The notes: generated by a model not told the origin, from the sequence alone. A stretch of DNA of 35,975 nt from Bdellovibrionales bacterium (GCA_022707945.1 JAKIZQ010000001.1:3120-39094); one strand, 5' to 3'. Counted from the first letter of the stretch, positions 2,262 to 22,428 are shown. Numbers and translations are program-made.

Positions 2262-3521
2262 ATGAATAAAACCTTATCTAGAATATTTTTATTGTTGTTA
2301 ATTCTTAATTCTTTCGTGGTTTTTGCAGAGGATTTCCCAACAGATGAGATTAGTTTAGACCAAGGTTTTGCAGAGGATAAAGGTATCACGCAGGAGCAAA
2401 AGGATTTTTCCTTGAGGGATAAGACAGAAATTGGTGGTTCCATATTCAGTGATTTTTATTATTCAACATATAGTGATAAGAGTTTTAATAATAACGTTTT
2501 TACTAATACCAATCTTGGATATGTGTATCTTGATTCAAAACTTCCAGAGGACGTAAGGTTTTTTCTTAAGGGTAAGTTCGTCTATACTCCTACTTCTGAA
2601 GGTGAACTTTCTCCTGTAACAGGGGAGACGTACGAAAAACTTTCTGCTGATCTTGATGAAGCAAAGATAATGTTCAATGCATACAACAGTGTTTTCTTTA
2701 CATTGGGTAAACAAAAAGTGAAATATGGTGCGGCAAAGTTTTGGAATCCAACTGATTTTTTGAACCAGACCATGAAGAACCCCTTTTACGACTATGATAG
2801 AAGAACAGGGCTACCGTTGGTTAAAATGCATATTCCAATAAATAGTAGTAACTTTTATTTGATAGGTGATCTTGATGATGCAAGGAATATAGACCAAGCA
2901 TCTTATGTTGTGCGATATGAGTTGCCTTTAGAAGCATCAGAATTTTCTATTTCAACGAGGGCAAAAAAAGATTCTGCAACAAAGCTTGGTTTTGATCTTT
3001 CTACAGCTTTATATGAGATAGATGTATACGCAGAAACCAGTGTTTCAAAAGGGAGTGACAAGATCTTTTATACACAGGCTGGTACTCCTTACATGGATAC
3101 GAAAAAAACATTTTGGGACGTTTCTGCAGGTATGAGCTATGAAATGCCTTTTCTTGACGCAGATTCAATAACTTTTTCTTTAGAGTACTACTATAACGGT
3201 GAAGGTTATAAAGACCCTTCTATGTATGGTATTCTATGGCTAAAGAAAGCGTATGTACCTCTTAATACGTCCAAGCAGTATGCGATGTTTATGATCTATG
3301 CACCAAATCCAGGTTCATGGAACGATACTAACATAAGTATTTTTAATATTGCCAATCTTACAGACTCTAGTGCTATAACGAGGGCAGAGTTAATGTATCT
3401 TTTTACAAAAGATCTTTCTATTGGATTTAATATAACAGGTCATTATGGCAAGAGTAGCGGTGAATTCCGTTTGTATGGACAACTTTTGGACTTTGGCGTG
3501 AGATTTGAACTTAATTTCTAA
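2262..3521 (+). CDS. putative outer-membrane beta-barrel protein (uncharacterised)
   Basis: From the ATG at 2262 the signal peptide is MNKTLSRIFLLLLILNSFVVFA; the track's GTG at 2253 is less likely. SD AGGTGA lies 5 nt upstream. The sequence has alternating aromatic/hydrophilic strands and a C-terminal ...RFELNF with terminal Phe, typical of OMPs. It is co-oriented and overlapping with the LolA-like gene. Confidence 0.5.
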   Translation: MNKTLSRIFLLLLILNSFVVFAEDFPTDEISLDQGFAEDKGITQEQKDFSLRDKTEIGGSIFSDFYYSTYSDKSFNNNVFTNTNLGYVYLDSKLPEDVRFFLKGKFVYTPTSEGELSPVTGETYEKLSADLDEAKIMFNAYNSVFFTLGKQKVKYGAAKFWNPTDFLNQTMKNPFYDYDRRTGLPLVKMHIPINSSNFYLIGDLDDARNIDQASYVVRYELPLEASEFSISTRAKKDSATKLGFDLSTALYEIDVYAETSVSKGSDKIFYTQAGTPYMDTKKTFWDVSAGMSYEMPFLDADSITFSLEYYYNGEGYKDPSMYGILWLKKAYVPLNTSKQYAMFMIYAPNPGSWNDTNISIFNIANLTDSSAITRAELMYLFTKDLSIGFNITGHYGKSSGEFRLYGQLLDFGVRFELNF

Positions 3522-3942
3522 ATAAAGGATCAGTTAATATAAAGCTCTTTATCTCATCTCTTACACGTCTGTATTGTTCCAATATTTTTTCCTCATTTTT
3601 AAGTCCTTCTGTTATTACTGGTGGATCATCAAAACCATGGTGTGTTTTTTTTGTTTTTGCAGGAAAGTATGGACATGTTTCATTTGCATGCGAGCAAAGT
3701 GTGACTACATAATCAAATTCCTTTATAGGTAGTTCACTGGTGGCTTTAGGTTTTTTGCTTGAGATATCTATCCCTAACTCACTCATAACTTTTACAGCCA
3801 GGGGATCTATATGTGTGCTCTTTTCTACTCCAGCTGAGTAACAAGTTAGATTCTCTTTGTGGTATTGTTGGCAAAAAGCTTCAGCCATCTGGCTTCTACA
3901 AGAATTTCCTGTACATAAAAACAATACACTTTTTTTATTCAT
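3511..3942 (-). CDS. arsC: arsenate reductase, thioredoxin-coupled LMW-PTP type
   Basis: Contains the P-loop [16 protein letters not shown] and the downstream Cys pair in [14 protein letters not shown] (Cys10/82/89 pattern). The real start is the internal ATG at 3942 (MNKKSVLF...), with AAGGAG 8 nt upstream. It overlaps the acr3 stop by 8 bp. Confidence 0.9.
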
Positions 3943-4969
3943 TAAAATATCTCCTTTTAAAAAATAAAGCCACACTAACAAGACCTATCAGTACTGGTAC
4001 TTCAACTAATGGACCTATTACAGATGCAAATGCAGCTCCGTGACCAATACCAAATGTTGCTATAGCAACAGCTATTGCTAATTCAAAATTGTTTGAAGCT
4101 GCAGTAAAAGAAAGTGTAGTGGCTTCTTTATAATTGGCTCCAAACTTTTTGCTTAAGAAAAAAGAGATAAGGAACATTAGAACAAAGTATATTAACAAAG
4201 GTATTGCTATTCTTATTACATCTAGAGGTAGTTCTACTATATATTCACCTTTTAGCGAGAACATAACAATTATAGTAAATAAAAGAGCTATCAATGTTAT
4301 GGGACTTATCTTTGGTATGAATTTTGTGTGGTACCATTCTTTACTCTTAACCCTTATCATCGAGTATCTAGTTATGAGTCCAGCAATAAAAGGTATCCCA
4401 AGATATATCAAAACACTTTTAGCTATTTCTGATATAGTGATATCTATTACAACTCCTTTAAGACCAAACCATGAAGGAAGTACTGTTATAAAAACATATG
4501 CATAGACTGAAAAAAATAGTACTTGAAATATTGAATTAAAAGCAACAAGTCCTGCACAATATTCTGTATCGCCTCTGGCTAAATCGTTCCAAACTATTAC
4601 CATGGCAATACATCTTGCTAACCCAATAAGTATTAAACCAGTCATATATTCTGGCCTATCACTTAAAAAGACTATAGCCAGTATGAACATAAGGATAGGA
4701 CCTATTAACCAATTTTGAATAAGTGACAAAGTTAAAATCTTTTTGTTAGAAAAAACTCTTCCCATTTCTTCGTATTTTACTTTTGCAAGTGGTGGGTACA
4801 TCATTAGGATTAGACCAATTGCTATAGGTACAGACGTTGTTCCAACATTAAACTTATTTATAAATGGTACTATTTCTGGAAAAATATACCCAAGTATTAC
4901 ACCTATAAACATCGCTAGGAAAATCCATAAAGTTAAAAATCTATCAATAAACTTTAATCGGATAGCCAT
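3935..4969 (-). CDS. acr3: arsenite efflux transporter, ACR3 family
   Basis: 344 aa polytopic membrane protein. The N-terminus [25 protein letters not shown] and the overall pattern match ACR3/ArsB(BART) carriers. SD GGAG is upstream, and arsC lies immediately downstream. Confidence 0.9.
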
Positions 4970-4992
4970 TTTTTTATCTCCTACTTAGTTAA

Positions 4993-5658
4993 TTAAAAAG
5001 TAAGCGTAAGATAGTAAACACCCACTATTATAAAGACAATACCAGTAGTTTTTCTTGCATAAACCTCCAGCTTACTTGTTTTATTAATCCATGAACCAAT
5101 CGCCTTAACTCCAAAAGCTGTTAAAATAGAAAAAACTAAAACAGGTAGTCCAGTAGCTAAACCATATATGAAGGGCAGAACAAGTCCTGTCTTTGAACTT
5201 AAGGATAAAGGGATCAAACTTCCAAAAAACAATGCCGCAGAAATGGGGCAAAAAGACAAAGCAAAAATAAAACCTAAAATAAAAGAACCAAAGACTCCAG
5301 AGTTTGAGAGTTTTTCAAATTTATCTTTGGAGATGGATAAACCTTTTATTTTGATTTTTATAGCATCGAGCAGAAATATGCCAATTAATATTAAAACTGG
5401 TCCTAAAGCCATGTTCATATATTTTTGTAGTAAATTAGCAATGGTTGGAACAGACATAAAAGATTTTATGACAATAAAACCTACAATGGCATATGCCAAC
5501 ATTCTACCCATTGAATAAAGTAGTCCAGAAATAAATACAAATTTGGTATGAACAATCTTTTTAGATATGAAAGTAACGGAGGCAATGTTGGTTGCTAGAG
5601 GGCAAGGACTTATGGAAGTTAAAATTCCAAGCCAAAAAGCAGTAAAGATAACAAACAT
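4993..5658 (-). CDS. DsbD_2/CcdA-like transmembrane thiol-disulfide protein (ArsG-family-like)
   Basis: 221 aa with about 6 TM helices. A Cys-Pro motif sits in TM1 (SISPCPLATNIA) and a second Cys in FALSFCPISAALF. It is embedded in the ars operon directly after a CxxC thioredoxin-like lipoprotein. The ArsG-family assignment is from memory of family naming and needs an HMM check. Confidence 0.55.
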   Translation of the reverse strand: MFVIFTAFWLGILTSISPCPLATNIASVTFISKKIVHTKFVFISGLLYSMGRMLAYAIVGFIVIKSFMSVPTIANLLQKYMNMALGPVLILIGIFLLDAIKIKIKGLSISKDKFEKLSNSGVFGSFILGFIFALSFCPISAALFFGSLIPLSLSSKTGLVLPFIYGLATGLPVLVFSILTAFGVKAIGSWINKTSKLEVYARKTTGIVFIIVGVYYLTLTF

Positions 5659-5668
5659 AGAAAATCTC

Positions 5669-6133
5669 CTATTTGGTGCTTAAGTATCCGTCTATTTCAT
5701 TCTTAACATAATTAAAAAACTTCTCTTTATTTCGAACATACTCCCATATCTTGTCTAAGTTTTTATATTTAATTTCCTTGGAGTTTTTTGTAACAGAAAC
5801 AGTCAGGGTTTTTGTATACAACTGATAATCTTTTATATAATGCTCATTACCTTTTTCTTCAACGTTGATGGCTTTAAAATTAATCTTACCTGACTCAATT
5901 TCTTTTTTGAAATATGTCTCGACAGCCTCTTTTGAATAGTTCTCTATATTTCTACAGGTTGGACACCTGAATTTGCCGTGGAAGTAATACACATTTACTA
6001 CTATTGTCTTTGGTGTTTTACTTTCAGCCTCTACTTTATTCTCTGTAGGTTCTTGTTTAACAGTCTGCTGTGGTGTTTTAGCACATGCCATAAAAGACAT
6101 TAGTACAGCAAACAGTATTATTTTAACTTTCAT
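5669..6133 (-). CDS. thioredoxin-like CxxC lipoprotein (ArsF-family-like)
   Basis: 154 aa. The signal/lipobox-like N-terminus is MKVKIILFAVLMSFMAC, and VNVYYFHGKFRCPTCRNIE is a thioredoxin-fold CxxC motif. Its start shares an ATGA overlap with the upstream DGC gene stop (6130-6133). Confidence 0.5.
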   Translation of the reverse strand: MKVKIILFAVLMSFMACAKTPQQTVKQEPTENKVEAESKTPKTIVVNVYYFHGKFRCPTCRNIENYSKEAVETYFKKEIESGKINFKAINVEEKGNEHYIKDYQLYTKTLTVSVTKNSKEIKYKNLDKIWEYVRNKEKFFNYVKNEIDGYLSTK

Positions 6134-6519
6134 AGTTTCTCCATTATAAGCTTTATAGCTTTTTCTATATTGTAGTCGTTACAAGGTGTTTTCCCTTTTT
6201 CAAATCCTAGGTCTTTAAGATTAAAACTTTTAGTTTTTATTCCTTTAGCTTCTAAAAGTTTCTTAGCACAAGAAACAGAACAGCCATCTATAGCTATAAT
6301 CTGGTTTGCTAACTTTGCAGATTCGACCATTCCAGATAAGTCAGCCCCTATACCAGCAAGGCAACCCATTCCAGAGATACAACCACCAGGAGTGTTGTTG
6401 GCTTTTGCCATACGTCTTGCTATTTTATCTGTGAGTTCTCCCACATCTGAGGCTCCAGAACAGGCATAAACCATTTGCTTGCTACTGCTACAAGAACAGG
6501 AACATTTGCAATTGCTCAT
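6130..6519 (-). CDS. DGC-domain putative zinc-binding protein
   Basis: The real start is the internal ATG at 6519 (MSNCKCSCSCSSS...), preceded by AAGGAGGAAA. It has a Cys-rich N-terminus, YACSGASDVG, and the eponymous IAIDGCSVSC motif. The long N-terminal extension in the ORF track (to 6795) lies inside the upstream permease gene. Confidence 0.65.
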   Translation of the reverse strand: MSNCKCSCSCSSSKQMVYACSGASDVGELTDKIARRMAKANNTPGGCISGMGCLAGIGADLSGMVESAKLANQIIAIDGCSVSCAKKLLEAKGIKTKSFNLKDLGFEKGKTPCNDYNIEKAIKLIMEKL

Positions 6520-6533
6520 TTTTCCTCCTTTAT

Positions 6534-7571
6534 CTAAAATATTAGATTGAAAATATATCCAATTACCAAAATACCGGTGGCCACTACAAAAACAAACGTC
6601 GCTATAAGTTTTGGTTTTAACACTTTTCTTAATATTATCATTTCGGGTAACGATAATCCTATTACAGACATCATGAATGCGAGGACGGTTCCAAGAGCCG
6701 CACCTTTTTCTAGAAGTGATTGGACTATTGGGATTATTCCTGCGGCGTTGGAATATAGTGGTACTCCTATTAGTACAGCAAGGGGAACAGACCAAAATGC
6801 ATTTTTACCCATAATGCCAGCTAGATAATTTTCTGGAATATATCCATGAAAGAAGGATCCAATTGCTATGCCTATTAACAAGTAAGACCATACTTTGCCC
6901 ACTATTTCTTTTACATTGTTGAAACCGATCTCTATCCTTTTTTGCCAACTGGTGATGTTAATAGTATTATTTGTAGCTGTATCTGTATTATTGTACACCC
7001 ATTCTTCTACATATCTCTCTAATTTTAGTTTTCCTATTACCAATCCAGATACTATAGCAATGAATAACCCCGTCGTTAAATACAATAAGGCTACTTTCCA
7101 TCCGAACATTCCCAAAAGGAGTATAAGTGCAACTTCATTTATCATTGGTGCAGATATCAAAAACGAGAAAGTAACTCCAAGAGGTACACCACTAGTAATA
7201 AAACCTATGAACAGTGGTATTGCTGAACAAGTACAGAATGGGGTAGTAACTCCTAAAAGTGAGGCTAGAATATTTCCTGTGAAAGCTCTTTTCCCAGCTA
7301 ATATTTTTCTTGTTTTTTCTGGAGTAAAGAAAGTCCTTATTATCCCTATTATGAAAACTATTATAGCTAGCAAGAGCAGAACCTTTGGTGCCTCGAATAT
7401 AAAAAATTCAATGGCTGAACCAAGTTTTGTCGTAGTATCTAGTTTAAATATAGAAACAGTTATCCAATTAGCTATATTTTCCATTTTTAAGAGTAGAATG
7501 TTTGTTGTTAAAAGGAACAAAAAAGCCTTAAAAATGGTTTTTAGTGATGTTCTATTTTCTGGTAATTTCAC
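6534..7571 (-). CDS. permease of the PF03773/ArsP-like family (putative organoarsenical efflux)
   Basis: Polytopic membrane protein with the Cys-x-Cys motif in TTPFCTCSAIPLFIGF and WITVSIFKLDTTTKLGSAIEFFIFEAPKVLLLL near the N-terminus. The start is ambiguous. GTG at 7571 has GGGAGG 5 nt upstream but overlaps the DUF134 gene by 20 bp. ATG at 7484 (MENIANW...) matches where homologues usually begin. Confidence 0.7.
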   Translation of the reverse strand: MKLPENRTSLKTIFKAFLFLLTTNILLLKMENIANWITVSIFKLDTTTKLGSAIEFFIFEAPKVLLLLAIIVFIIGIIRTFFTPEKTRKILAGKRAFTGNILASLLGVTTPFCTCSAIPLFIGFITSGVPLGVTFSFLISAPMINEVALILLLGMFGWKVALLYLTTGLFIAIVSGLVIGKLKLERYVEEWVYNNTDTATNNTINITSWQKRIEIGFNNVKEIVGKVWSYLLIGIAIGSFFHGYIPENYLAGIMGKNAFWSVPLAVLIGVPLYSNAAGIIPIVQSLLEKGAALGTVLAFMMSVIGLSLPEMIILRKVLKPKLIATFVFVVATGILVIGYIFNLIF

Positions 7572-7848
7572 AACAACCTCCCTCTACTTTTATTGCTTTT
7601 ATATTAACAAGAGCATCTGTAACCTTTTGGTTGGCAGAGGAGAGTATCCTTGAAACAGTTGAGCGATGTATTTTCATTCCCTTTGCTATTTTGTTCTGTT
7701 GCCACTCCTCAAGGTAGGTCAATCTTAACACCTCTAGTTCGTCGATAGTTAAAATAACACCACTAAGTTCACTGGCCTTTTTGCATTTAGGTTTAAAACA
7801 TCTTTCTTTTGGACTACATTTTATCCATCTTGTCTTTTTGGGTCTCAA
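7552..7848 (-). CDS. DUF134 (UPF0251) family DNA-binding protein; candidate regulator of the ars operon
   Basis: RPKKTRWIKCSPKERCFKP...LTIDELEVLRLTYLEEWQQNKIAKGMKIHRSTVSRILSSANQKVTDALVNIKAIKVEGG matches the DUF134 pattern (MPRPKK.R...FKP...DE.EA.RL...ISR.TV.R.L..AR.KV..AL..G.AI.I.GG), a sigma70-region-4-like HTH. The likely start is TTG at 7848 (M-RPKK...) with AGAGAGG 7 nt upstream. The track's TTG at 7902 adds 18 non-conserved residues. Confidence 0.7.
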   Translation of the reverse strand: MRPKKTRWIKCSPKERCFKPKCKKASELSGVILTIDELEVLRLTYLEEWQQNKIAKGMKIHRSTVSRILSSANQKVTDALVNIKAIKVEGGCCEITRK

Positions 7849-7953
7849 AGTACAACCTCTCTTTATATGGTTTTGCACATGGGTGCATAATAATGTTTTC
7901 AAGTACTTAAGTCAATTTAAAAGATCAGCGAACCTGGATATTGAGCGAGAGGG

Positions 7954-8657: not shown

Positions 8658-9317
8658 ATGAAATTTGATGCTATAGTTTTTGATCTTGATGGAACACTTA
8701 TAGATAGTTCTAAAGGTATCCTTGATTCTTTATTTAAGGCTATGGATGTCCACGGAATAAAACCTGCTATAACAAAACTTGATTCACATTTTTTTATGGG
8801 CAAAAGTTTGCCAGAGACGCTAGACGTACTGATGCCCGGAGCAACAAAAGAAATGATCAAGAAAGTCGGGGATTATTATGTAAGTCATTACTACGATAAT
8901 TATATGGATAAAGCAGAGACCTTTGAAGGTGTTAAGGAAACCATAAGATCTTTGTATGAAAGAGGATACAAGATGGCTGTTGCTACAGCTAAACATACTT
9001 TTTGTGCAGAAGCAGAGCTTAAGTCTTCTGGTATTAGAGGGTATTTTCTAGAAGTAAGAGGCAGAGATGAAGGTGTGCCAGCAAAGCCAGACCCAAAATT
9101 ACTTTTTGAAATATGTGAAAAGCTTAATGTGGACCCAAAAAAAATATTAATGGTTGGAGATACAGATAGAGACGTTCTTTTTGGCAAGAATGCAGGAACA
9201 AGTACTTGCGCTGTTACTTATGGCAATTGGTCTAAAGAAAAATTTATTAGAGAGAATATAATACCGGATGTGTTCGTAGATAGGTTTAATGGAATATTGG
9301 ACCTCTTGGAAAACTAA
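8658..9317 (+). CDS. HAD-superfamily hydrolase (phosphoglycolate-phosphatase-like, subfamily IA)
   Basis: Motif I is FDAIVFDLDGTLIDS. VATAK (motif II region) and MVGDTDRDVLFGKNAG (motif IV) are also present. Confidence 0.8.
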   Translation: MKFDAIVFDLDGTLIDSSKGILDSLFKAMDVHGIKPAITKLDSHFFMGKSLPETLDVLMPGATKEMIKKVGDYYVSHYYDNYMDKAETFEGVKETIRSLYERGYKMAVATAKHTFCAEAELKSSGIRGYFLEVRGRDEGVPAKPDPKLLFEICEKLNVDPKKILMVGDTDRDVLFGKNAGTSTCAVTYGNWSKEKFIRENIIPDVFVDRFNGILDLLEN

Positions 9318-9964
9318 AAGGATCCTTTATTTATCATTTTTATTATTGCTGTTATGTCAGAGGGCATGTATGCATAATAATCCGCTCCAGTTTGCATTAA
9401 TGCTTTAGCTGAGTTACCACCCCATGTTACAGCTATTATAGGTATGCCAATTATTTTGCATGAATCTATATCTCGTATCTCGTCTCCTACATAAATTACA
9501 TCTTCTTTTTCGTATTTTTCTGTTCTTAATAATTTTTTTAGATGTACCCATTTCCCGAACGCAGAACAGTTCGTGTACATAAAACTAAAATAGTGTCCTA
9601 TTCCATTGTTTTCCAGAACTTGTAGGGCATTTTTTGTGCTATTAGAGGTTAGTATGCCAAGCTTACATTCCTTGGAAAGCTCCTCTAACATTTCTTTTAT
9701 ACCGGGGAATATCTTAATATCACCTGTTTTTTGACTTATTATTCTTCTTATCTCTCTGGCCCAAAATAAAAGTCTTATCTTTCCAAGGTTAAGATGTGAA
9801 AGAAGGAATTCTTTAAAGGACATGTCCCTTATTACAGGAGAATCTTCTATTGGTTTATACTTGTATTTTGGTGCTAGCTCGTTTGCTACGGCTAAACCAA
9901 TGTGAAAGGAATCTGCCAATGTTCCATCAAGGTCAAAAATTACAGCTTTAATTTTTTTATCCAT
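9314..9964 (-). CDS. HAD-superfamily hydrolase (phosphoglycolate-phosphatase-like, subfamily IA)
   Basis: Motif I is KAVIFDLDGTLADS. ILTSNS and YVGDEIRDIDSCKIIGIPIIAVTWG are also present. It is a paralogue-like partner of the facing gene. Confidence 0.8.
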   Translation of the reverse strand: MDKKIKAVIFDLDGTLADSFHIGLAVANELAPKYKYKPIEDSPVIRDMSFKEFLLSHLNLGKIRLLFWAREIRRIISQKTGDIKIFPGIKEMLEELSKECKLGILTSNSTKNALQVLENNGIGHYFSFMYTNCSAFGKWVHLKKLLRTEKYEKEDVIYVGDEIRDIDSCKIIGIPIIAVTWGGNSAKALMQTGADYYAYMPSDITAIIKMINKGSF

Positions 9965-10035
9965 TATTCTTTTTGCCTAATTTCAATTTTGTATATATAA
10001 AAAAGTAACTATTGTAAATCGGTTTTGGGGGAAAC

Positions 10036-11574
10036 ATGCAGAACATAGCTTGGCGAGATTTTTCCTTTTCCGGTAACTATATTAATGGAAGATTTGTTAT
10101 TCCAGAACATCCTAACTCTTATTTAGAAAAGAGGGACCCCGGTAATACTAAAGACCTTATTGTTAGTTTGCCTGTTTATTTTCCACATGCAGAAGAAGCG
10201 GTTCAGAGCGCTAAAGATGTTTTTGAAAAATGGTCCTCTTTAGATGGAAAGACCAGGTTAGAGATGCTAGGAAGGCTCAAAAACTCCTTGGAGATGCTTT
10301 CTCCTTGGTTGGTAGAACTAACCTCAAGAGAACTTGGGCGTCCTATTTGGGATTCAAAGCAGGAAGTAGAGCTTGCGCTTAATGATATAAATGAGCTTTT
10401 TAGGCAATTTGGCTCTTATACTCCTTTTGATGGTTCGGTTCTTGATGACTCTAAAGAAGTTATCCAACTATATAAACCAAACGGAGTGGTAGCGGTAATA
10501 GCGCCGTTCAATCAACCTGTATTATATCCAATACGTTCCATAGTAAGTTCTTTGTTGATAGGCAACACCGTCGTATATAAACCTTCTGAATACACTCCAT
10601 TGGTGGGACAAGTTATAGCAGAAGCTGTACATCATGCAGAATTGCCCAGTGGTGTTTTTAACATGGTACTAGGGGAAAAAGAGATATCTAAGAGGATAAT
10701 AAAGCACCACGGTGTATATACGGTGTTCTTTAATGGTACCTTTGAAACAGCCACCAAGATATCGCAATACATATCAGATGATTATTGGAAGATACTTGTT
10801 ATGGGAACAGGAGGAAAGAACGCATCTGTTATACTTTCTGACGCTGATATAGATAATGCTGTTAACGAATTGGTTTTTGGGGCTTTTGTTAGTGCAGGAC
10901 AAAGAAGTAACGGTATACGCAGGATATTCGTCCATAATAACCTTGCAGATCAATTTATTGATAAGTTCCACAGAAAATCAAAAAAATTAAGAGTGGGACA
11001 TCCTTTAGATGAATATAGGGACAAAAGACCTTTCATGGGACCTTTGATATCAGAGAACGCAATGCAAAATTATTTAAGGTTACAAGGTATATCACAGCGT
11101 GAAGGATCAGAAATACTTATGAGAGGAAAAGAAATAGAGATTGATACTGGATATAAGGGATATTACGTTACACCATCTATACATCTTACTGATGAAATAG
11201 ACGAGAAAGGAATATACAATACTAGTGAGATCTTTGGACCAAATGTATCAATAAAAAGATTTAGTGAGATAGAAGAAGCGATAGCTTCTCATAATACTTG
11301 TGAATATGGTTATGGCCTAAGTGTATTTGGTCATGATAACGGTTGTATTAAGGAGCTAGTTAGGAACTGTAACGTTGGACAGGTGTTCTTAAATTCAATT
11401 ACACTCGGTGAATCTGTCCATTATCCTATAGCTGGATATGGTAAATCTGGTAATTCTAGACCAGAGGGTTCATATAATTCTCTTTATCTAAGAAGACCAG
11501 TGACTGTATATAGAAAAGACTCTGTTTCAAAGTCGATACAGAATCTTGGTCTTGACGATATAAAGGAGTTCTAA
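10036..11574 (+). CDS. aldehyde dehydrogenase superfamily protein (AstD-like) lacking both catalytic residues; probable pseudoenzyme
   Basis: 512 aa with a clear ALDH scaffold: YINGRFV, GVVAVIAPFNQP, VVYKPSEYTP, GVFNMVLG, FNGTFETATKI, SEIFGPNVSI and GYGKSGNSRPEG. However, LELGGKN reads MGTGGKN (codons at 10801-10821, Glu->Gly), and GQ.C.A reads GQRSNG (10897-10914, Cys->Ser at 10906-10908). Confidence 0.85.
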   Translation: MQNIAWRDFSFSGNYINGRFVIPEHPNSYLEKRDPGNTKDLIVSLPVYFPHAEEAVQSAKDVFEKWSSLDGKTRLEMLGRLKNSLEMLSPWLVELTSRELGRPIWDSKQEVELALNDINELFRQFGSYTPFDGSVLDDSKEVIQLYKPNGVVAVIAPFNQPVLYPIRSIVSSLLIGNTVVYKPSEYTPLVGQVIAEAVHHAELPSGVFNMVLGEKEISKRIIKHHGVYTVFFNGTFETATKISQYISDDYWKILVMGTGGKNASVILSDADIDNAVNELVFGAFVSAGQRSNGIRRIFVHNNLADQFIDKFHRKSKKLRVGHPLDEYRDKRPFMGPLISENAMQNYLRLQGISQREGSEILMRGKEIEIDTGYKGYYVTPSIHLTDEIDEKGIYNTSEIFGPNVSIKRFSEIEEAIASHNTCEYGYGLSVFGHDNGCIKELVRNCNVGQVFLNSITLGESVHYPIAGYGKSGNSRPEGSYNSLYLRRPVTVYRKDSVSKSIQNLGLDDIKEF

Positions 11575-12647
11575 TGTTCTGGCACAAACATAAAACTTTT
11601 ATTATGTTCATCTCTATTTTGGCCGTTCTTATCTCCTTGTATTATGTGTCCTCATTTATGGTTTTTGTCTATACTCCAGCGACATCGTTCAAAGGTGCAC
11701 ATGTGGTTGATATTCCCCACGGTGCTTCTTTTAGGAAGATAACTGATATTCTTAAGCAGAATAGATTGGTTAAAGATAAAAAAAGGTTTTTGATACTTGC
11801 TAGGCTAACAGGAGCGGATAAGAGGATACAGTCAGGAGAGCTGCAATTTGATCTTTCTATGACCCCAATGCAAGTGTTGGATAAGTTAATGTATGGCGTG
11901 CCTGTGGCCTATGCTTTTATTGTCCCTGAAGGAACCAACATATATCAGATAGGCGAAATACTTAAGAACATGGGAATGATAAAAGACCCATCAGAATTTG
12001 TGAGTGCCGCAAAGAATAGAAAACTTATAGAAGAACTGGGTGTAAAAGCAAAGAGTATGGAAGGATATTTGTTTCCAGATACTTACAATATAAGAAAGAC
12101 TAAAGACGTTAAGGACATAATAAGGATGATGCATAAAAAATATAAAAACGTCTTTAACGACGACCTTTTAAGGCGGGCTTATAAAATGGGCCTTAGTGAA
12201 CATGAAACGGTGACTCTTGCTTCTATAATAGAGAAAGAAACTGGCGCTCCAGAAGAAAGGAAATTAATTTCTTCTGTTTTTCATAATAGACTTAAAAAAG
12301 GTATGCCACTACAGAGTGATCCCACTACTATCTATGGTCTTTGGGAGAATTATGATGGGAATCTTACAAAAGATAAACTACAACAGTATACTCCTTACAA
12401 CACTTATAAGATACATGGCTTGCCTGTTGGTCCAATAGCTAATCCGGGCAAAGAATCCATTGTTGCCGCTCTCTATCCAGATGATACAGACTATTTATTT
12501 TTTGTATCAAAGAATGACGGGACACATACTTTTACTATTGAATATAAAGATCATTTAAAAGCAGTTGGTAAATATCAGCTTGATGCAAAACAACGTCAGG
12601 GTAAAAGCTGGCGTGATCTTAAAAATCCTAAGAAGCAAGGTCTTTAA
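11574..12647 (+). CDS. mltG: endolytic peptidoglycan transglycosylase MltG (YceG family)
   Basis: It has an N-terminal TM helix. LASIIEKETGAPEERKLISSVFHNRLKKGMPLQSDPTTIYG and YNTYKIHGLPVGPIANPG are YceG/MltG signature motifs. The ATG overlaps the ALDH stop (TAATG), with AAGGAG 5 nt upstream. Confidence 0.9.
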   Translation: MFWHKHKTFIMFISILAVLISLYYVSSFMVFVYTPATSFKGAHVVDIPHGASFRKITDILKQNRLVKDKKRFLILARLTGADKRIQSGELQFDLSMTPMQVLDKLMYGVPVAYAFIVPEGTNIYQIGEILKNMGMIKDPSEFVSAAKNRKLIEELGVKAKSMEGYLFPDTYNIRKTKDVKDIIRMMHKKYKNVFNDDLLRRAYKMGLSEHETVTLASIIEKETGAPEERKLISSVFHNRLKKGMPLQSDPTTIYGLWENYDGNLTKDKLQQYTPYNTYKIHGLPVGPIANPGKESIVAALYPDDTDYLFFVSKNDGTHTFTIEYKDHLKAVGKYQLDAKQRQGKSWRDLKNPKKQGL

Positions 12648-14124
12648 GCATTCTTGATGCTTTTTGATGGTATACATCGCTAGCTGGGACCAAACTTATT
12701 ATCGCCCTAAGATTTGATTCCATAGATGCTGTGTCTTTGTATGACTTTTCAACCAAAGCCTTAGCATATAGTAGCTTAGCTTGGTCATGTTTCTTTTTAA
12801 AGATAGCATTTAAGGATGCCTTTGCTTGTGTTTGATAAGGGAACACTGCCAATACTCTTTGATATATTTTAATAGCTTCTTCTTCTGCATCAGCTTTTGC
12901 TAATAGAGAAGCTTCTTTTATCATATGAGCGAATAAACTATTGGTTATAGATATAACCTTATTCTTTGTTCTAAAAGCTTTTAAGAAAGAAGTTCTTCCG
13001 CTTTGTCCTTGTCCCATGGCTATTATTTTGTTAGCAAGTTCAAACGCTGTTGTATAGTCCTGTGCTTTAAATGATTTGCTCATTTCATTAGCGTATATTT
13101 CTGCCTGAGGGATAGTTTTTGATTCTATACTCTCTATTACTGGTTGATGTTTCTTGGTGATTTCACTTTGTGCCAATAGTATTCCGTCATAAGCGCTGTT
13201 GTTGTATTCATCTATTTCTAGTATCTTTGAATATATATTTATAGCGTTCTCATATTCTTCACGACCTAAAGCCTGACTACCTTGTTCAAGAAGTTTTGAT
13301 ATTAACTCTCTTTTTTCTGATTCTTTCTCTAATTTTTCAAGTTTTTCATCTGCTAATGAGTTGTTACCTAAAGCTTCTTCGCATGTTGCTATAAAAGCAG
13401 GAGCTATAACTGAATTTGGGACCATTGCAAAATAAGCTTCCATTGATTTTTTTGCCAAAGCAAAGTTTCTAGCCTTAAAGTGATATTCAGCAAGTTTAAA
13501 CATATTTAGTGCTCTAACACGATCTTCTTCGCCTAATTTTGTACTAGTTAGTTCTTGTTCTGCTGTTAATATTTCTTGTATCTTTGCTTTCTGGATAGAA
13601 GGAATAACTTTTGCTTCTTTTTCTGGCCCTGTTAACAAGAGTGTTAGTGCAAATGCTAAAAGGCTAACAGCAGAAGCTGTTACGATATTTTTTCTAGTCC
13701 ATTTTGGGAGTTTAGGAACATATTTTTTCTCGAAAGAACTGTTGTCTATGGTTAGAGGACGTAAGGAAACCTTGTTCATGTTCAGGTCTTCTCTTGTTAG
13801 GACAAAACTAAAAGAACTTGTTCCAGCAACGATCTTGTCATTTCCTGTAAGGATAGCTTTTTTGACTTTTTTGCCGTTAACAATCAATCCGTTAGAACTA
13901 TTAAGGTCTTTTATCTCAAATTTACCGTCGGTCCTTACCAACATAAAATGGTTTCTTGAAAGTTTGTCATCGTCTACACATATGTCACACTGTTTTGATC
14001 TTCCAACTATAACGCAATCGGTACTTATATTTTTCTGTATTTTTTTGCCGTTCTCCACGAATTCGATTACCGGTAGTAATGGTCTTCTTGAGATGAAAGT
14101 TGAATCAATAATCTTATTATTCAT
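12628..14124 (-). CDS. FHA-domain membrane protein with long TPR-like/helical C-terminal region
   Basis: The N-terminal FHA domain reads VIVGRSKQCDICVDDDKLSRNHFMLVRTDGKFEIKDLNSSNGLIVNGKKV. One TM helix (IVTASAVSLLAFALTLLLTG) is followed by about 330 aa of repetitive helical A/Y/K-rich TPR-like sequence. Confidence 0.75.
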   Translation of the reverse strand: MNNKIIDSTFISRRPLLPVIEFVENGKKIQKNISTDCVIVGRSKQCDICVDDDKLSRNHFMLVRTDGKFEIKDLNSSNGLIVNGKKVKKAILTGNDKIVAGTSSFSFVLTREDLNMNKVSLRPLTIDNSSFEKKYVPKLPKWTRKNIVTASAVSLLAFALTLLLTGPEKEAKVIPSIQKAKIQEILTAEQELTSTKLGEEDRVRALNMFKLAEYHFKARNFALAKKSMEAYFAMVPNSVIAPAFIATCEEALGNNSLADEKLEKLEKESEKRELISKLLEQGSQALGREEYENAINIYSKILEIDEYNNSAYDGILLAQSEITKKHQPVIESIESKTIPQAEIYANEMSKSFKAQDYTTAFELANKIIAMGQGQSGRTSFLKAFRTKNKVISITNSLFAHMIKEASLLAKADAEEEAIKIYQRVLAVFPYQTQAKASLNAIFKKKHDQAKLLYAKALVEKSYKDTASMESNLRAIISLVPASDVYHQKASRMLKDLAS

Positions 14125-14297: not shown

Positions 14298-14313
14298 ATT
14301 GGGTGAAAAACTG

Positions 14314-15159
14314 ATGTTTTTATTAATATGTTCTTTATTATCAAGTATTTTGACCGCTCAAAATTATGAGGTAACGCCATATGGAGCAAAGGTGGCTTCT
14401 TTGGCAGAAGGTGGTAGAGCCTTTATCAATGGCTATGACTCTATCATGATAAACCCAGCTGGTACTGCCATGATAGAAGACCCTCAGTTTGGCTTTGCCT
14501 TTGATGCTGCTAATTACGTGTCTATGTCTATTGGCTATGTTGATGACAGTGGCTTTCATATTATGCAAGTGTTTAAGGACATTGATAGTGCCTTTTCAGT
14601 AGCAGGGGCACAAACTTATGCTGGATTTAGTTATGCACTGTCTAAGTATTGGTTGGTTGGGGCTAACTTTGGTTACAATTATTATCAAGATGACAATGGT
14701 TGGGATGTTAATTTTGGCCTAGATTTTGGTCCGGGTCTGAAAAATGCTACAAGGACTGGGTTTATAGGGGCTGTAACTGTTAGAAATCCTTTTGAGAATG
14801 GTGGACAGGGAGAAGTTTCTGGAACACTAGGATATTCATATAAGTCGGCATTCAGCATTACAATAGACAATATATATGTTTTCCAAGACGACATAATAAT
14901 TGGAACAACCGTTGTGGATAGAAAAAGATACGATATCGTAATGGCTTTAGAGAGCTATCCTCTGGAGTCAGATGATTATTGCATGAGCTTTGCTGGTAGA
15001 ATAGAGGATGTGAGTGGAGATAATAATCTAAAATTTGGAATCGGTTTTGGTTATGTAGGAGATACTTTTAGGGCTGATCTTGGTCTATTCGCTACCAAGT
15101 TTGAGAAATCTAAAATTGAGAAAATGACCTTTGCTATATCGCTGATATTTGGAGTATAA
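14314..15159 (+). CDS. putative outer-membrane beta-barrel protein (uncharacterised)
   Basis: From the ATG at 14314 the signal peptide is MFLLICSLLSSILTAQ; the track's TTG at 14299 is less likely. It has an NPAG motif (IMINPAGTAMIED) and Gly/aromatic-rich alternating strands, with a hydrophobic C-terminal strand. Confidence 0.45.
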   Translation: MFLLICSLLSSILTAQNYEVTPYGAKVASLAEGGRAFINGYDSIMINPAGTAMIEDPQFGFAFDAANYVSMSIGYVDDSGFHIMQVFKDIDSAFSVAGAQTYAGFSYALSKYWLVGANFGYNYYQDDNGWDVNFGLDFGPGLKNATRTGFIGAVTVRNPFENGGQGEVSGTLGYSYKSAFSITIDNIYVFQDDIIIGTTVVDRKRYDIVMALESYPLESDDYCMSFAGRIEDVSGDNNLKFGIGFGYVGDTFRADLGLFATKFEKSKIEKMTFAISLIFGV

Positions 15160-15161
15160 GC

Positions 15162-16388
15162 TTGTTCTTTAGGATATTTTCGTTCTTGATTGTTTTTAGC
15201 TCATCTACATTGTGGTCAGGGACCAAAGATGTTCTTTTGGATAATGGTCTACGAATAATATATTCAGATAGTTCTTCTAAGTACCCAGGTGTTGTTATGA
15301 GTATATTCGTTAAAGGAGGTTTTTCTCTTTCTTATGATAAAAAATCATCATTTGCCAATATTGCCACAGATTATACCTCATCGAGGATAAAAAGGCTTTC
15401 TAGGTCCTATGGTTTTAGATATAGAACGTCCATATCAGTTGATTATACTTCTTATCAACTTTATCTTTCTAGAGCGTCTTTGGACCAAGTACTTCCTAGA
15501 GTGTTTGCAATATTTATGGACCCTGAACCAATAAAAGATCAGGAGCTTAATTATCTTAAACAAGGTTCTACACAAAGGGCTCTATCAAACATCAATAGAA
15601 GATCTATAAAATACCCTCTGATAAGTTATTTTGCGTCAAGGTACAGCATCTATAATGCTGGTAGAGATGGTTTCATAGAGGACATCTCAAGTATATCAGA
15701 AAGAGAATTTAACGATTTTATCAAATGTTATTTTAGTGCGAACAATATAATTATTTCTTTTACTGGAGTTAAGGAGAAGGACTTACCCATCGAGGATGCA
15801 ACATCATATAGGCCATGTTTTAAGAACGAACATTTTCATGTTAGTACCATTGACAAGATCGGTGATAATTCTGTTACAGATTTTTCTTATTACCCTTCTA
15901 AAAAATATGGTTTTATTGCTAGAATGGGTTTTTTGAGTTCATCTTGCAAGGACAACAGTATACTTTATGACGTAGTTGCAGAAATAATATCGAGAGACGA
16001 CAGAATAAGATCAATTACAGAATCACTTGATGTTCAGAACAACTGTTATGACAAAACAGGTACTCTTGACCTTGTTTTTTCTGGAGATAAAACAAATATT
16101 TCTTCAGGATATCTTATACAAGAGATCTTTGGTTTATCAAAAAGATTGGAAGAGCAGGAGTTTGACTTAGCAAAAAAACAGATACTTGAGGATTATTATA
16201 GAAAGATTAATGAAAAGGATTCTTTCTCGTACCTCTTAGCCAAAACACAACTCTTATGTGGAGATCATAAAAAACTTATAGATTATCCAAAAGAACTTGA
16301 AAAAATAAAACTAAAGGACATAAAAAGGGTTCTGGCAAAACTTTCTTCGTCTCAGTATGTCTACCTTTTTATGAAAATGGGCAAATGA
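15162..16388 (+). CDS. M16 (pitrilysin)-like protein without the HxxEH zinc motif (probably non-catalytic)
   Basis: TTG start with GGAG 7 nt upstream and a signal peptide. LLDNGLRIIYSD...VVMSIFVKGGFS and FNDFIKCYFSANNIIISFTGV fit the M16 N-domain pattern. The position of G.aHflEH reads SSFANIATDY, and no HxxEH occurs anywhere. Confidence 0.45.
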   Translation: MFFRIFSFLIVFSSSTLWSGTKDVLLDNGLRIIYSDSSSKYPGVVMSIFVKGGFSLSYDKKSSFANIATDYTSSRIKRLSRSYGFRYRTSISVDYTSYQLYLSRASLDQVLPRVFAIFMDPEPIKDQELNYLKQGSTQRALSNINRRSIKYPLISYFASRYSIYNAGRDGFIEDISSISEREFNDFIKCYFSANNIIISFTGVKEKDLPIEDATSYRPCFKNEHFHVSTIDKIGDNSVTDFSYYPSKKYGFIARMGFLSSSCKDNSILYDVVAEIISRDDRIRSITESLDVQNNCYDKTGTLDLVFSGDKTNISSGYLIQEIFGLSKRLEEQEFDLAKKQILEDYYRKINEKDSFSYLLAKTQLLCGDHKKLIDYPKELEKIKLKDIKRVLAKLSSSQYVYLFMKMGK

Positions 16389-17239
16389 ATAGAGCCTTAT
16401 GCTGTCTGTTAATATCGTTCTGTTTGAGTAGTTGCAATCGTTCTACATACAATAAGGGTAGCGTAGTGCATCCAAAGAAAGATAAAAATGGTTATAGTGT
16501 TTCTTATGTTAAGACTAAAAGTAGTGGTAATTTTACTAATTTATTCAGAGTGTCTGCTGATGATGTTCCTGTTTGGTGTGATCTAAGTGGGCGGTCCTCA
16601 AGATATTTAGAAGCTGCCAACCTCGTGTTACAATCTAAAGACCTTAAGCCTGTCTATGTTGCCTGTTATTCTGGTAAGACACCAGAGATCTATGATAACC
16701 ATAATGTTGATCGTGCTCTAAAGATAGGTAAAAAAACATTGTATTTGTATGATCCGTTAGATGAACTTTTATTTGTTGCTGTTAGTATAAAAAGTAATTG
16801 TATCCAAGATATGCCTGTTTATTATTTTTCTTTATATTATGAACTTTGTACTGGGAATGGTGTGGAATGTTGCATGAATGGTAACGGAAAGTCTTTTAAC
16901 ATATATGCTGTTATAAAAGATGACCCTAGCTTAGATATTAAAACAAGGCTCAAAAGTTTTTTTGAATATATTTCTAAACCATCTCTGTCGAATATGGCAC
17001 AAGATGCGTCTTACGATATTTTTACCTCTTACATAGAGGATGTTTGTTCATTCAATCGATGGTATCACGGTGCTGTTCATATGGGCATAACAGATCCAGA
17101 AACATTTTTAGATAAGGATGTTTGGACCGAACATTTTAATTCATTAAAGACTTGTGAAATAAAGATCCAAAACAGTTTGTTGCTGTTTGTTGGGCCTAAA
17201 GAGCCCAAAGCAGAACTTATCGATTCTCTAGTTCCTTGA
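16385..17239 (+). CDS. hypothetical lipoprotein, Cys-rich
   Basis: The lipobox is LLISFCLSSC. It shares an ATGA overlap with the preceding M16-like gene. I recognised no family. Confidence 0.45.
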   Translation: MNRALCCLLISFCLSSCNRSTYNKGSVVHPKKDKNGYSVSYVKTKSSGNFTNLFRVSADDVPVWCDLSGRSSRYLEAANLVLQSKDLKPVYVACYSGKTPEIYDNHNVDRALKIGKKTLYLYDPLDELLFVAVSIKSNCIQDMPVYYFSLYYELCTGNGVECCMNGNGKSFNIYAVIKDDPSLDIKTRLKSFFEYISKPSLSNMAQDASYDIFTSYIEDVCSFNRWYHGAVHMGITDPETFLDKDVWTEHFNSLKTCEIKIQNSLLLFVGPKEPKAELIDSLVP

Positions 17240-21310: not shown

Positions 21311-21318
21311 AGAACACC

Positions 21319-22428
21319 ATGGTTTCAAAAATAGAAAGAGATCATGCAAGGTTCCAAGAAATAGTAAAGGGAAAGATTCGTCAGAATCTTAAGGAATACA
21401 TCACTAAGGGAGAAATGATAGGTCGTGTAGGAAAGCATTTTGTAAGTATTCCTGTTCCAAGAATAGACCTTCCCAGATTTAGATATGGGCTTCCAGAGAC
21501 TGGTGGTGTGAGTTCGGGTGACGGTGCAGAAGGAACTCCACTTGGGCCAGCTTATGATCCAGAAGATGGTGGTGGAGAGGCTGGTAACCAACCGGGACAA
21601 CATGAACTTGAAGTTGATATCAGTATAGAAGAACTTGCAAAAATGTTGGGAGAAGAACTGGAACTCCCAAAAATAGAGCCAAAAGGTTCGAGTAAGATGG
21701 AAGCTATGAAAAGAGTTTATAGGGGAGTCCATCTTGTTGGTCCTCGGTCTTTGGTCCATTTTAAAAGAACATATAAAGAAGCATTAAAGAGGCAAATAAT
21801 ATCTGGAGAGTATGATCCAGACGATCCTGTTATAGTGCCAATAAAGAAAGATTTTAGATATAGAGGTTGGAAGGATATAGTTCAGCCTCAATATAATGCA
21901 GTGGTCATATACATGATGGACGTTAGTGGTAGCATGGGTGATGAGCAAAAAGAGATGGTAAGAATAGAATCTTTTTGGATAGATACTTGGTTAAGAAGTC
22001 ATTACAGAGATCTTGAAACAAGGTTTATCGTACATGATGCTTCTGCGAGACTTGTAGATAGAGAAACTTTTTTTAAAACAAAAGAGAGTGGTGGAACACT
22101 GATATCTTCTGCGTATAAACTTTGTGACATACTTATAGATAGAGAATTTCCACCAGATGAGTGGAATGTATATCCTTTCCATTTTTCTGATGGTGATAAC
22201 TGGTCGTCAGAAGATACTCGTGTTTGTGTTGAACTTTTAAGGAACAACATTATCCCAAAGTCAAATATGTTCTGTTATGGACAGGTAACAAGCAGGTATG
22301 GCTCTGGGCAATTCATAAAGGATTTACAAGAGAACTTTAAAGATGACGACAAACTGATACTTTCAACAATAGAGAATAAAGACGGCATACTTAACTCCAT
22401 AAAAGATTTTCTTGGAAAAGGTAAATGA
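21319..22428 (+). CDS. YeaH/YhbH family protein (DUF444, vWA-like)
   Basis: 369 aa. [39 protein letters not shown] (vWA MIDAS-like) and [12 protein letters not shown] are typical of DUF444, the partner of PrkA. Confidence 0.85.

Follow-up and report, generated by a model that had tools for sequence, protein, structure and literature searches.

A conserved AstD-like protein predicted to lack dehydrogenase activity is encoded directly upstream of mltG in a Bdellovibrionales lineage

Introduction

Why would a bacterium preserve an aldehyde dehydrogenase (ALDH) whose catalytic residues have been replaced? This question is raised by a gene in a stretch of 35,975 nucleotides from a Bdellovibrionales bacterium (GCA_022707945.1, JAKIZQ010000001.1:3120-39094), which was analysed over its whole length and is called the window hereafter. 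The gene encodes an ALDH-like protein and overlaps the start of mltG, the gene of an endolytic transglycosylase. An original prediction had proposed that the protein lost both its general-base Glu and its nucleophilic Cys, that it has a function other than that of a dehydrogenase, and that it is translationally coupled to mltG. Here we report that the protein is conserved and selected, that it probably acts as a binding or regulatory pseudoenzyme, and that its link to mltG appears to have been inherited together with the gene order of a former operon.

In ALDHs that oxidise aldehydes, the three residues Asn, Glu and Cys are universally conserved, and across the superfamily the Cys is found 34 residues past the Glu and about 133 past the Asn (PMC12041015). 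[quoted passage not shown] Bacterial pseudoenzymes are poorly catalogued, and the ALDH pseudoenzyme named in a 2025 review is vertebrate ALDH16A1, which has none of the triad residues yet is conserved, and for which a role in binding or protein interaction is presumed (PMC12041015). In our searches of the literature we came across neither a bacterial AstD-type pseudoenzyme nor an astD-mltG arrangement, and nothing relevant on mltG or on a succinyltransferase of Bdellovibrio.

An ALDH-superfamily protein outside the AstD family

By both profile and fold, the protein is a member of the ALDH superfamily. It has a single ALDH domain (residues 51-480) that aligns to positions 30-450 of the 461 positions of the Pfam profile PF00171 (Aldedh), with 330 bits and an E-value of 2e-98. 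An AlphaFold2 model, computed with a 50-sequence alignment as input, is confident throughout (pLDDT 92.7, pTM 0.92) and matches more than 50 solved ALDH chains in Foldseek, with TM-scores of 0.82-0.87. No signal peptide or transmembrane segment is visible in the 512 residues, and the protein is predicted to be cytoplasmic.

The best matches in both the PDB and NCBIfam are to AstD, the N-succinylglutamate 5-semialdehyde dehydrogenase, which has the same fold and length. In phmmer searches the AstD structures 3ju8, 4kna and 5u0l rank first (1e-53 to 1e-56), and the top NCBIfam models are those of AstD, TIGR03240 and PRK09457. However, the scores against these models (286.3 and 272.6) are only about half of the cutoffs (514 and 579.3, respectively), and the protein falls far under the cutoff of every ALDH equivalog in NCBIfam. 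The canonical AstD-like protein of Bdellovibrionales is itself under the AstD cutoff, with 458 against 514 bits.

Homology searches show a sharp break: 21 sequences at 55-97% identity, referred to here as the clade, are followed by proteins at about 40% identity that are annotated as AstD and come from Bdellovibrionota and Oligoflexia. Identity to the canonical Bdellovibrionota proteins is only 36-40%. When 1.84 billion representatives clustered at 50% identity were scanned with HMMER, the whole clade appeared as one cluster (643 bits), and the next match had 369 bits and 38% identity, with no intermediates. Clade proteins are at present labelled in databases as 'succinylglutamic semialdehyde dehydrogenase' or 'aldehyde dehydrogenase family protein'. 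The AstD label should not be applied to the protein described here, which stays under the curated cutoffs and, as shown below, has neither the required catalytic residues nor the neighbouring pathway genes; such labels would inflate the arginine catabolism predicted for uncultured Bdellovibrionota.

Three of four active-site residues are replaced

Catalytic positions were determined from phmmer alignments to 3ju8, 4kna and 5u0l, and from a MAFFT alignment with 120 database relatives. In all three structure alignments the AstD motif ALEMGGNN is paired with VMGTGGKN, and SAGQRCTCARR with SAGQRSNGIRR. Gly257 thus occupies the position of the Glu (Glu268/269) and Ser291 that of the Cys (Cys302/303), and Asn159 of the oxyanion hole (Asn169/170) is the only triad residue kept (Table 1), while all 97 canonical relatives in the MAFFT alignment carry Asn, Glu and Cys. 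Residue 291 is 34 positions past residue 257 and 132 past residue 159. On this point the original prediction is borne out by two alignment methods and by the spacing, with no Cys or Glu placed at the catalytic positions, and the motifs it quoted are all found in the translation (PFNQP, 157-161; KPSE, 182-185; FNGT, 232-235; EIFGP, 398-402; GYGKSG, 467-472).

Two trivial accounts of these replacements were considered. Misalignment is ruled out by the agreement of the three AstD structure alignments with MAFFT and by the exact 34/132 spacing. As for a replacement Cys elsewhere in the protein, the only Cys that is invariant in the clade, Cys422 (HNTCEYGYG), is several residues before the YGL element and appears to lie off the nucleophile site.

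The loss extends beyond the two residues named originally. Ile465, in the sequence PIAG, stands at the position of the 'substrate-pushing' Phe (PFGG), which is Phe in 100% of the canonical relatives; the roles assigned here to this Phe and to the neck position are those given in the 2025 ALDH review (PMC12041015). Three of the four conserved residues of the active site are then gone (Glu to Gly257, Cys to Ser291 and Phe to Ile465), with Asn159 remaining.

These changes are shared by the clade. None of the 21 members has Glu at the general-base position, which is Gly in 20 and Ser in P0019. At the nucleophile position 19 members have Ser, always encoded by AGY codons, and two have Cys (P0003, TGT; P0019, TGC), the TGY codons of these two being one transversion away from AGY. 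Asn159 is conserved in 20 of the 21 and is Asp in P0013. All four GGN codons are used for Gly257 across the clade loci, which argues for selection for Gly at this position. A neighbour-joining tree recovers the clade as monophyletic, with a long stem, and places the Cys-bearing P0003 inside a set of members that carry Ser; position 291 therefore toggles between Ser and Cys, and nothing else.

Since two members keep the Cys, and Asn159, Lys182, Glu185 and Glu398 are retained, one may ask whether the protein is an aldehyde dehydrogenase still, or a CoA-acylating or reductase variant, working through Ser or Cys291 without the canonical base. CoA-acylating ALDHs of the MMSDH type are said to dispense with the hydrolytic Glu. 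We consider this very improbable. Asn, Glu and Cys are universal among the aldehyde-oxidising members of the superfamily (PMC12041015), whereas 19 of the 21 clade proteins have no Cys, the Phe is replaced, residues on the nicotinamide side are changed, and no ALDH equivalog model in NCBIfam scores anywhere near its cutoff. Judged from these residues, standard aldehyde dehydrogenase activity should be excluded, and any role as an aldehyde dehydrogenase is very unlikely.

Strong purifying selection on the replaced active site

The ALDH-like protein is folded, selected and functional, and is under very strong purifying selection. Against its closest relative (locus L001), the ratio of non-synonymous to synonymous substitution rates (dN/dS) is 0.024 at a dS of 0.61 (Nei-Gojobori), compared with 0.045 for mltG, 0.035 for the FHA gene downstream and 0.018-0.055 for the two HAD genes upstream, and the protein is thus among the most constrained in its neighbourhood. 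For every other pair within the clade synonymous sites are saturated, and the proportion of non-synonymous differences (pN) is at most 0.23. In clade pairs the ALDH-like proteins are more similar to each other than are the MltG proteins (70 vs 57%, 68 vs 60%, 66 vs 58% and 55 vs 47% identity), and the open reading frame (ORF) is unbroken in all full-length members.

This constraint is concentrated where the active site used to be. Over the former active-site segments (the Asn loop and helix, KPSE, the Glu loop, the Cys loop, EIFGP, YGL and the anchor loop) the mean column entropy is 0.40 bits, as compared with 0.83 for the whole protein, and every one of 10,000 random residue sets gave a higher value. 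The most conserved stretch of 15 residues in the clade is found at the N-terminus (WRDFSFSGNYINGRF, residues 6-20, positions 10051-10095), where Trp6, Asp8 and Ser10 are invariant in the clade and variable in canonical AstD-like proteins; this N-terminus may serve as a new interaction surface. The ALDH-like protein is about 38% identical to the Bacteriovoracaceae outgroup, and the canonical Pseudobdellovibrio protein 47-50%, which points to faster change on the stem of the clade.

Recent decay or sequencing error can be ruled out, because 21 sequences, with identities as low as 55%, have the substitutions in common and dN/dS is so low. The original prediction had named recent decay as an outcome that would undo its claim; the survey of orthologues, with Glu absent from all 21 and Ser present in 19, speaks the other way.

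An older loss of function has also to be weighed. The ORF stops on the start codon of mltG and contains the Shine-Dalgarno sequence of that gene, and it is the last gene left of an eroded operon (see below), so that it might be a functionless relic, kept as a launch pad for mltG translation or decaying slowly. But a launch pad needs no specific amino acids, which fits badly with a dN/dS of 0.024; MltG is less conserved than the ALDH-like protein, whose ORFs are intact, the constraint falls in structural and active-site motifs, and the structural model is confident. The selection data contradict this explanation, and we regard it as extremely improbable.

A probably remodelled pocket

What, then, is being selected? 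When the clade is compared with its canonical relatives, 30 sites that are conserved within both groups and differ between them (type-II divergence) cluster in the substrate channel, in the Glu, Cys and anchor loops, and also at the nicotinamide side. Near the Asn loop these changes are F to Q160, H to L163, L to Y164 and G to R167, with Gln160, directly after Asn159, replacing a Phe that is invariant in canonical relatives. In the Glu loop LEM is changed to MGT at 256-258, in the Cys loop CS.TS is changed to SN.IR at 291-295, and in the anchor loop the changes are A to E459, where the Glu is invariant in the clade, L to Y463 and F to I465; elsewhere K is changed to D117. The pocket has in this way gained seven polar or charged residues that are invariant in the clade (Gln160, Tyr164, Arg167, Asn292, Arg295, Glu459 and Tyr463), and Arg290, directly before the nucleophile position, is kept. 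The Arg before the nucleophile binds the substrate carboxylate in some ALDHs, such as ALDH7A1. Taken from these residues, the pocket is probably more polar and more cationic than that of AstD.

On the cofactor side the original prediction, that most motifs are kept, holds in part. The residues that bind NAD(P) in ALDHs are Lys192, Glu195, the Gly-rich patch at 245-250, Glu399 and Phe401. Contacts to the adenosine side of NAD are retained (Lys182, Glu185, Glu398 and Phe400, the last being Leu in three basal clade members), and so is Gly234, but several positions of the Gly-rich and nicotinamide side differ from the canonical proteins (G to K215, G to A/S218, T to N233, S to T235, G to A239, M to T258 and L to Y426).

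Loss of catalytic residues combined with purifying selection is the operational mark of a pseudoenzyme, and the clade proteins show both. The non-dehydrogenase function proposed originally accordingly stands, the triad losses being fixed across a strongly constrained clade. Our preferred reading, to which we give reasonable probability, is a pseudoenzyme that acts by binding or in regulation and whose ligand pocket has been remodelled. According to this model, a descendant of astD stayed at the locus of an uncultured low-GC lineage after the other ast genes had left it, and the replacement of Glu, Cys and Phe would have put an end to the thiohemiacetal/thioester cycle of aldehyde oxidation, which those residues had made possible. 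The full-length, folded, cytoplasmic protein that was retained would still use its pocket in a non-dehydrogenase role, as the constraint and the lineage-specific invariant residues concentrate there. The pocket may bind a small, probably anionic metabolite and possibly also the ADP half of NAD(P), through Lys182, Glu185 and Glu398, and the protein would act through this binding or as a regulator.

The same features could belong to a repurposed enzyme, in which Ser291 (or Cys) is the nucleophile, Asn159 forms the oxyanion hole and a migrated base, for example Glu459, supports hydrolase/esterase-type or other NAD-independent chemistry. Position 291 is only Ser or Cys in the 21 sequences, with Ser always encoded by AGY despite synonymous saturation; Asn159 is kept, the active-site loops are the most conserved and the channel has new invariant polar residues. 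ALDHs moonlight as esterases (PMC12041015), and another paper documents pseudoenzymes with migrated catalytic residues (PMC10211241). However, the sequence places no base beside Ser291, and Glu459 is situated in the substrate-anchor loop. In the structures of other ALDHs, such as ALDH7A1 and ALDH4A1, this loop binds the distal end of the substrate and not the nucleophile. Moreover, other AstD-like lineages that have independently lost the catalytic residues carry Ala, Phe, His, Arg or Tyr at the Cys position, and a nucleophile is thus not generally needed for the scaffold to be retained. We consider a repurposed enzyme unlikely, but it is the main rival of our preferred reading.

Several points count against the binding or regulatory pseudoenzyme that we prefer. 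The restriction of position 291 to Ser and Cys, the retained Asn159 and the invariant Glu459 fit an enzyme with a migrated catalytic apparatus as well. Given the altered contacts on the Gly-rich and nicotinamide side, NAD(P) binding may have been lost altogether. The mapping of residues to functions beyond the triad rests on motif homology and on the literature. Finally, the 36-kb window, which is the sole region of the genome covered, has no astA, astC or active AstD.

Descent from an eroded succinyltransferase operon

The origin of the gene was traced by comparing the genome loci of 80 relatives, using tblastn, with the neighbours found in the window and in a complete Pseudobdellovibrio genome. 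In 20 canonical Bdellovibrionales loci, a class-III aminotransferase (AstC-like), an M20 deacylase, AstA (PF04958) and an AstD-like ALDH are encoded in this order, followed by MltG, and the adjacency of astD and mltG is kept in more than 25 species. In Bacteriovoracaceae the four ast-type genes are present but mltG does not accompany them.

Partly eroded versions of this cluster were found at several loci. L035 has astC-astA-astD-mltG. In L013 (3778-7834) astA and the M20 gene are gone and the aminotransferase is kept, giving astC, an ALDH gene with Glu changed to Gln, and mltG. L088 (815-3340) has also lost astA and the M20 gene, and its ALDH, between astC and mltG, has Ala/His/Ala at the triad. 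L084 reads M20-astA-ALDH, with Glu changed to Asp and Asn to Thr. L013 and L088 are independent lineages at intermediate stages of operon erosion, and together with L035 they link the canonical arrangement to that of the clade.

The synteny of the clade was assessed in the window, L001/L081, L002, L003, L005, L006, the basal L083 (24% GC) and the Cys-bearing L091. All clade loci with enough flanking sequence have the same order: HAD1, HAD2 (opposite strand), the ALDH-like gene, mltG and an FHA/TPR gene (opposite strand). HAD2 sits where canonical relatives have astA, and the FHA/TPR gene is a conserved downstream neighbour in the clade only. No homologue of astA, astC or the M20 gene was found in the 36-kb window or adjoining the gene in any clade member. 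By position, then, the ALDH-like gene is orthologous to astD, and it is the last gene to survive from an operon of the arginine/ornithine succinyltransferase (AST) type. This operon remnant was absent from the original prediction.

The mltG junction predates the loss of catalysis

The identity of the downstream gene as mltG is secure, as its product scores well above the curated cutoffs of PF02618 and TIGR00247. The overlapping stop and start codons and the embedded AAGGAG are as described originally (Table 1). TAATG or TGATG junctions occur in the window, L001, L081, L002, L003, L005 and L091; L083 has a gap of 1 nucleotide and L006 an overlap of 17, and an equivalent purine-rich Shine-Dalgarno sequence is present in the clade loci. 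This recurring overlap, with the Shine-Dalgarno sequence embedded in the upstream ORF, implies co-translation, and co-expression with mltG, as had been predicted, is thus probable. A scan of 9700-12900 for promoters and terminators gave counts equal to those expected from shuffled sequence, with no terminator on the + strand at the ALDH-like/mltG junction. The last codons of the ALDH-like gene (11557-11571, Ile-Lys-Glu-Phe) are conserved in the clade as (I/L)K(E/D)(L/F), whereas the preceding 20 residues are highly variable; the simplest explanation is that these codons double as the mltG Shine-Dalgarno sequence.

The original prediction also implied a special tie between the dead enzyme and mltG, and for this part we find no support. 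In at least 20 Bdellovibrionales species an intact astD has the same position, and canonical junctions are as tight (at most 7 nucleotides, or overlapping), taking the form TAATG in L013 and L034 and elsewhere a TTG that overlaps the stop codon or an ATG 7 nucleotides after it. Because catalytically intact astD genes share both position and junction, the linkage to mltG is older than the loss of catalysis. The coupling is therefore ancestral, a matter of inherited gene order that was not created when catalysis was lost, and co-translation with MltG would be a by-product of the tight astD/mltG junction. In the survey of linkage proposed in the original prediction, mltG is kept in the clade loci, but it is also linked to intact astD, and AstD-like relatives with a dead active site occur without mltG.

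Could the protein nevertheless be a cytoplasmic partner or regulator of MltG, with translational coupling securing the stoichiometry? In the clade, and independently in L088 and L013, the ALDH-like gene and mltG have stayed paired after astA and M20 were lost; the overlap at the junction is conserved, and astD is adjacent to mltG in more than 25 species. Yet adjacency is equally present with a catalytically intact astD, dead relatives exist without mltG (L082, L087, L089 and L085), and so does the ast cluster of Bacteriovoracaceae. As seen in its sequence, MltG has about 8 cytoplasmic residues followed by one transmembrane helix, with the catalytic domain in the periplasm, and it is difficult to see how a cytoplasmic ALDH-fold protein could touch so short a tail directly. 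We consider an MltG partner improbable, and the evidence does not indicate an action on MltG. The link to mltG is probably historical and the cell-wall angle should not be over-read.

With this in mind, one may still speculate that dead dehydrogenases derived from AstD form a recurrent, selected class of pseudoenzymes in Bdellovibrionota and their relatives, and that the copy in the window is a cytoplasmic sensor of a metabolite (an arginine- or ornithine-derived acid, or NAD(P)(H)), made in a fixed ratio to MltG, that would feed nutrient status into the termination of peptidoglycan strands. If true, amino-acid catabolism and cell-wall synthesis would be functionally connected in predatory bacteria, and the phylum-wide astD-mltG junction would be a sign of it. 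We hold this speculation to be quite improbable.

Other dead AstD-like lineages and known systems

Among the 118 full-length 50%-identity cluster representatives nearest to the query (P0121-P0269), 40 lack at least one of Asn, Glu and Cys; at about one third, this suggests that the phenomenon is much wider than the clade. A second coherent group of such proteins comes from high-GC metagenome-assembled genomes (L036-L048 and L050; for example L042, 5968-7581, and L045, 5968-7560). It has the motifs TPYNLP, YQCGGKG (Glu to Gln), GQRH (Cys to His) and EEPPGP, in which EIFGP is lost, and a gene with PALP and CBS domains is always divergently upstream. In L087 (3621-8413) an AstD-like protein with Ser/Ser/Ser at the triad (P0131) is encoded in a different context of arginine metabolism, with an AstC-like aminotransferase on one side and, on the other, argC-argB, the genes of N-acetyl-glutamyl-phosphate reductase and acetylglutamate kinase. 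The remaining dead proteins without mltG are found beside an M20 gene (L082, L089) or alone (L085).

The group L036-L050, P0123 (L088), P0131 (L087) and P0135 (L082) resemble the clade protein in having an AstD scaffold with Glu and/or Cys replaced, often within remnants of ast or arg clusters, and L088 is likewise directly upstream of mltG. They differ from it in their independent substitutions (Gln/His, His/Ala, Ser/Ser and Glu/Ala), in their identity of at most 40% and in their neighbourhoods. Loss of catalysis thus appears to be recurrent in the AstD-like branch of the superfamily. The top matches of the representative search also include P0124, a predicted protein of 5578 residues with three ALDH-like stretches and 26% identity to the query.

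With AstD (3ju8, 4kna) the protein shares the C-terminal motif KSGN.RP and the GQR motif, whose Arg precedes the nucleophile position; it differs by the changes Glu to Gly, Cys to Ser and Phe to Ile and by about 30 fixed differences in the pocket. Like the ALDH of the canonical astC-M20-astA-astD-mltG cluster, it is encoded immediately before mltG and the junction is tight, but no astA, astC or M20 gene adjoins it. Like ALDH16A1, it is a conserved ALDH-superfamily protein lacking residues of the catalytic triad. However, ALDH16A1 belongs to family cd07111, carries an additional Rossmann-like domain at its C-terminus, forms an atypical dimer and has lost all three triad residues, whereas the protein described here is single-domain, AstD-type and keeps the Asn, with no sequence relationship between the two beyond the superfamily. 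The ALDH scaffold is also put to non-catalytic use in ALDH-derived lens crystallins and in the C-terminal ALDH-like domains of PutA and ALDH16. [quoted passage not shown] What these loci offer is a traceable path from an intact AST-type operon, through partly eroded operons, to a lone dead enzyme, and with it a clean natural experiment on the re-use of an enzyme scaffold once its pathway disappears.

Features of the locus and of the remaining window

Coordinates are collected in Table 1. A link of HAD1 and HAD2 to the peptidoglycan-recycling phosphatase MupP was not found: NCBIfam gave generic PpaX/Gph-like matches, all below cutoff.

Table 1. Positions in the window of the ALDH-like gene, its predicted key residues, the mltG junction and the flanking genes
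Feature	Position	Strand	Remarks
ALDH-like coding sequence, putative AstD-derived pseudo-dehydrogenase	10036..11574	+	512 residues, ATG start
Asn159 codon (AAT), oxyanion-hole Asn	10510..10512	+	sole catalytic-triad residue kept; from alignments
Gly257 codon (GGA), position of general-base Glu	10804..10806	+	MGTGGKN vs canonical LEMGGKN
Ser291 codon (AGT), position of nucleophile Cys	10906..10908	+	GQRSNGIRR vs canonical GQRCS.TSR
Remodelled 'anchor/neck' loop, Glu459-Ile465 (GESVHYPI)	11410..11430	+	type-II divergence, from alignment
AAGGAG, Shine-Dalgarno sequence of mltG	11563..11568	+	inside the ALDH-like Lys-Glu codons, 5 nucleotides before the ATG
TAATG stop/start overlap of ALDH-like gene and mltG	11572..11576	+	TAA 11572-11574, ATG 11574-11576, one base in common
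mltG, YceG-family endolytic transglycosylase	11574..12647	+	PF02618, 296 bits, 3.5e-88; TIGR00247, 278.9 bits vs cutoff 103.4
HAD1, second HAD-family phosphatase	8658..9317	+	HAD_2, 2.8e-36; part of the conserved clade-specific neighbourhood
HAD2, HAD-family phosphatase	9314..9964	-	HAD_2, 4.7e-31; divergent from the ALDH-like gene; syntenic in all clade loci
FHA and TPR protein gene	12628..14124	-	FHA, 2.4e-17; convergent with mltG, 3' ends overlap by 20 nucleotides

Beyond the FHA/TPR gene, three co-directional ORFs of 286, 408 and 284 residues (14299-17239) have no Pfam or NCBIfam match and are syntenic in the clade loci; in L081 and L083 a bactofilin gene comes after them. The 286-residue product is 98% identical to that of L001 (dN/dS 0.019), and the other two ORFs evolve about six times faster.

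On the other side of the HAD genes, positions 3511-7902 (- strand) hold an arsenic/metalloid-type cluster, with an SBF/Acr3-like transporter, a DsbD_2 membrane protein, an ArsP-type permease, a DUF134/sigma70_r4 regulator and an LMWPc ArsC-like gene, the Pfam match of the last being seen in the orthologous locus L081. Further downstream, a trio encoding PrkA (AAA and kinase-like), a DUF444 (YeaH-like) protein and a SpoVR-like protein (19232-23939) forms a conserved stress/starvation module. An AddA/AddB-like pair (27319-32794, - strand), with ORFs that overlap by about 110 nucleotides, consists of a UvrD-type helicase with a C-terminal PD-(D/E)XK nuclease and a second PD-(D/E)XK/Cas4-like protein, and an RmuC gene (26199-27302) lies downstream of it.

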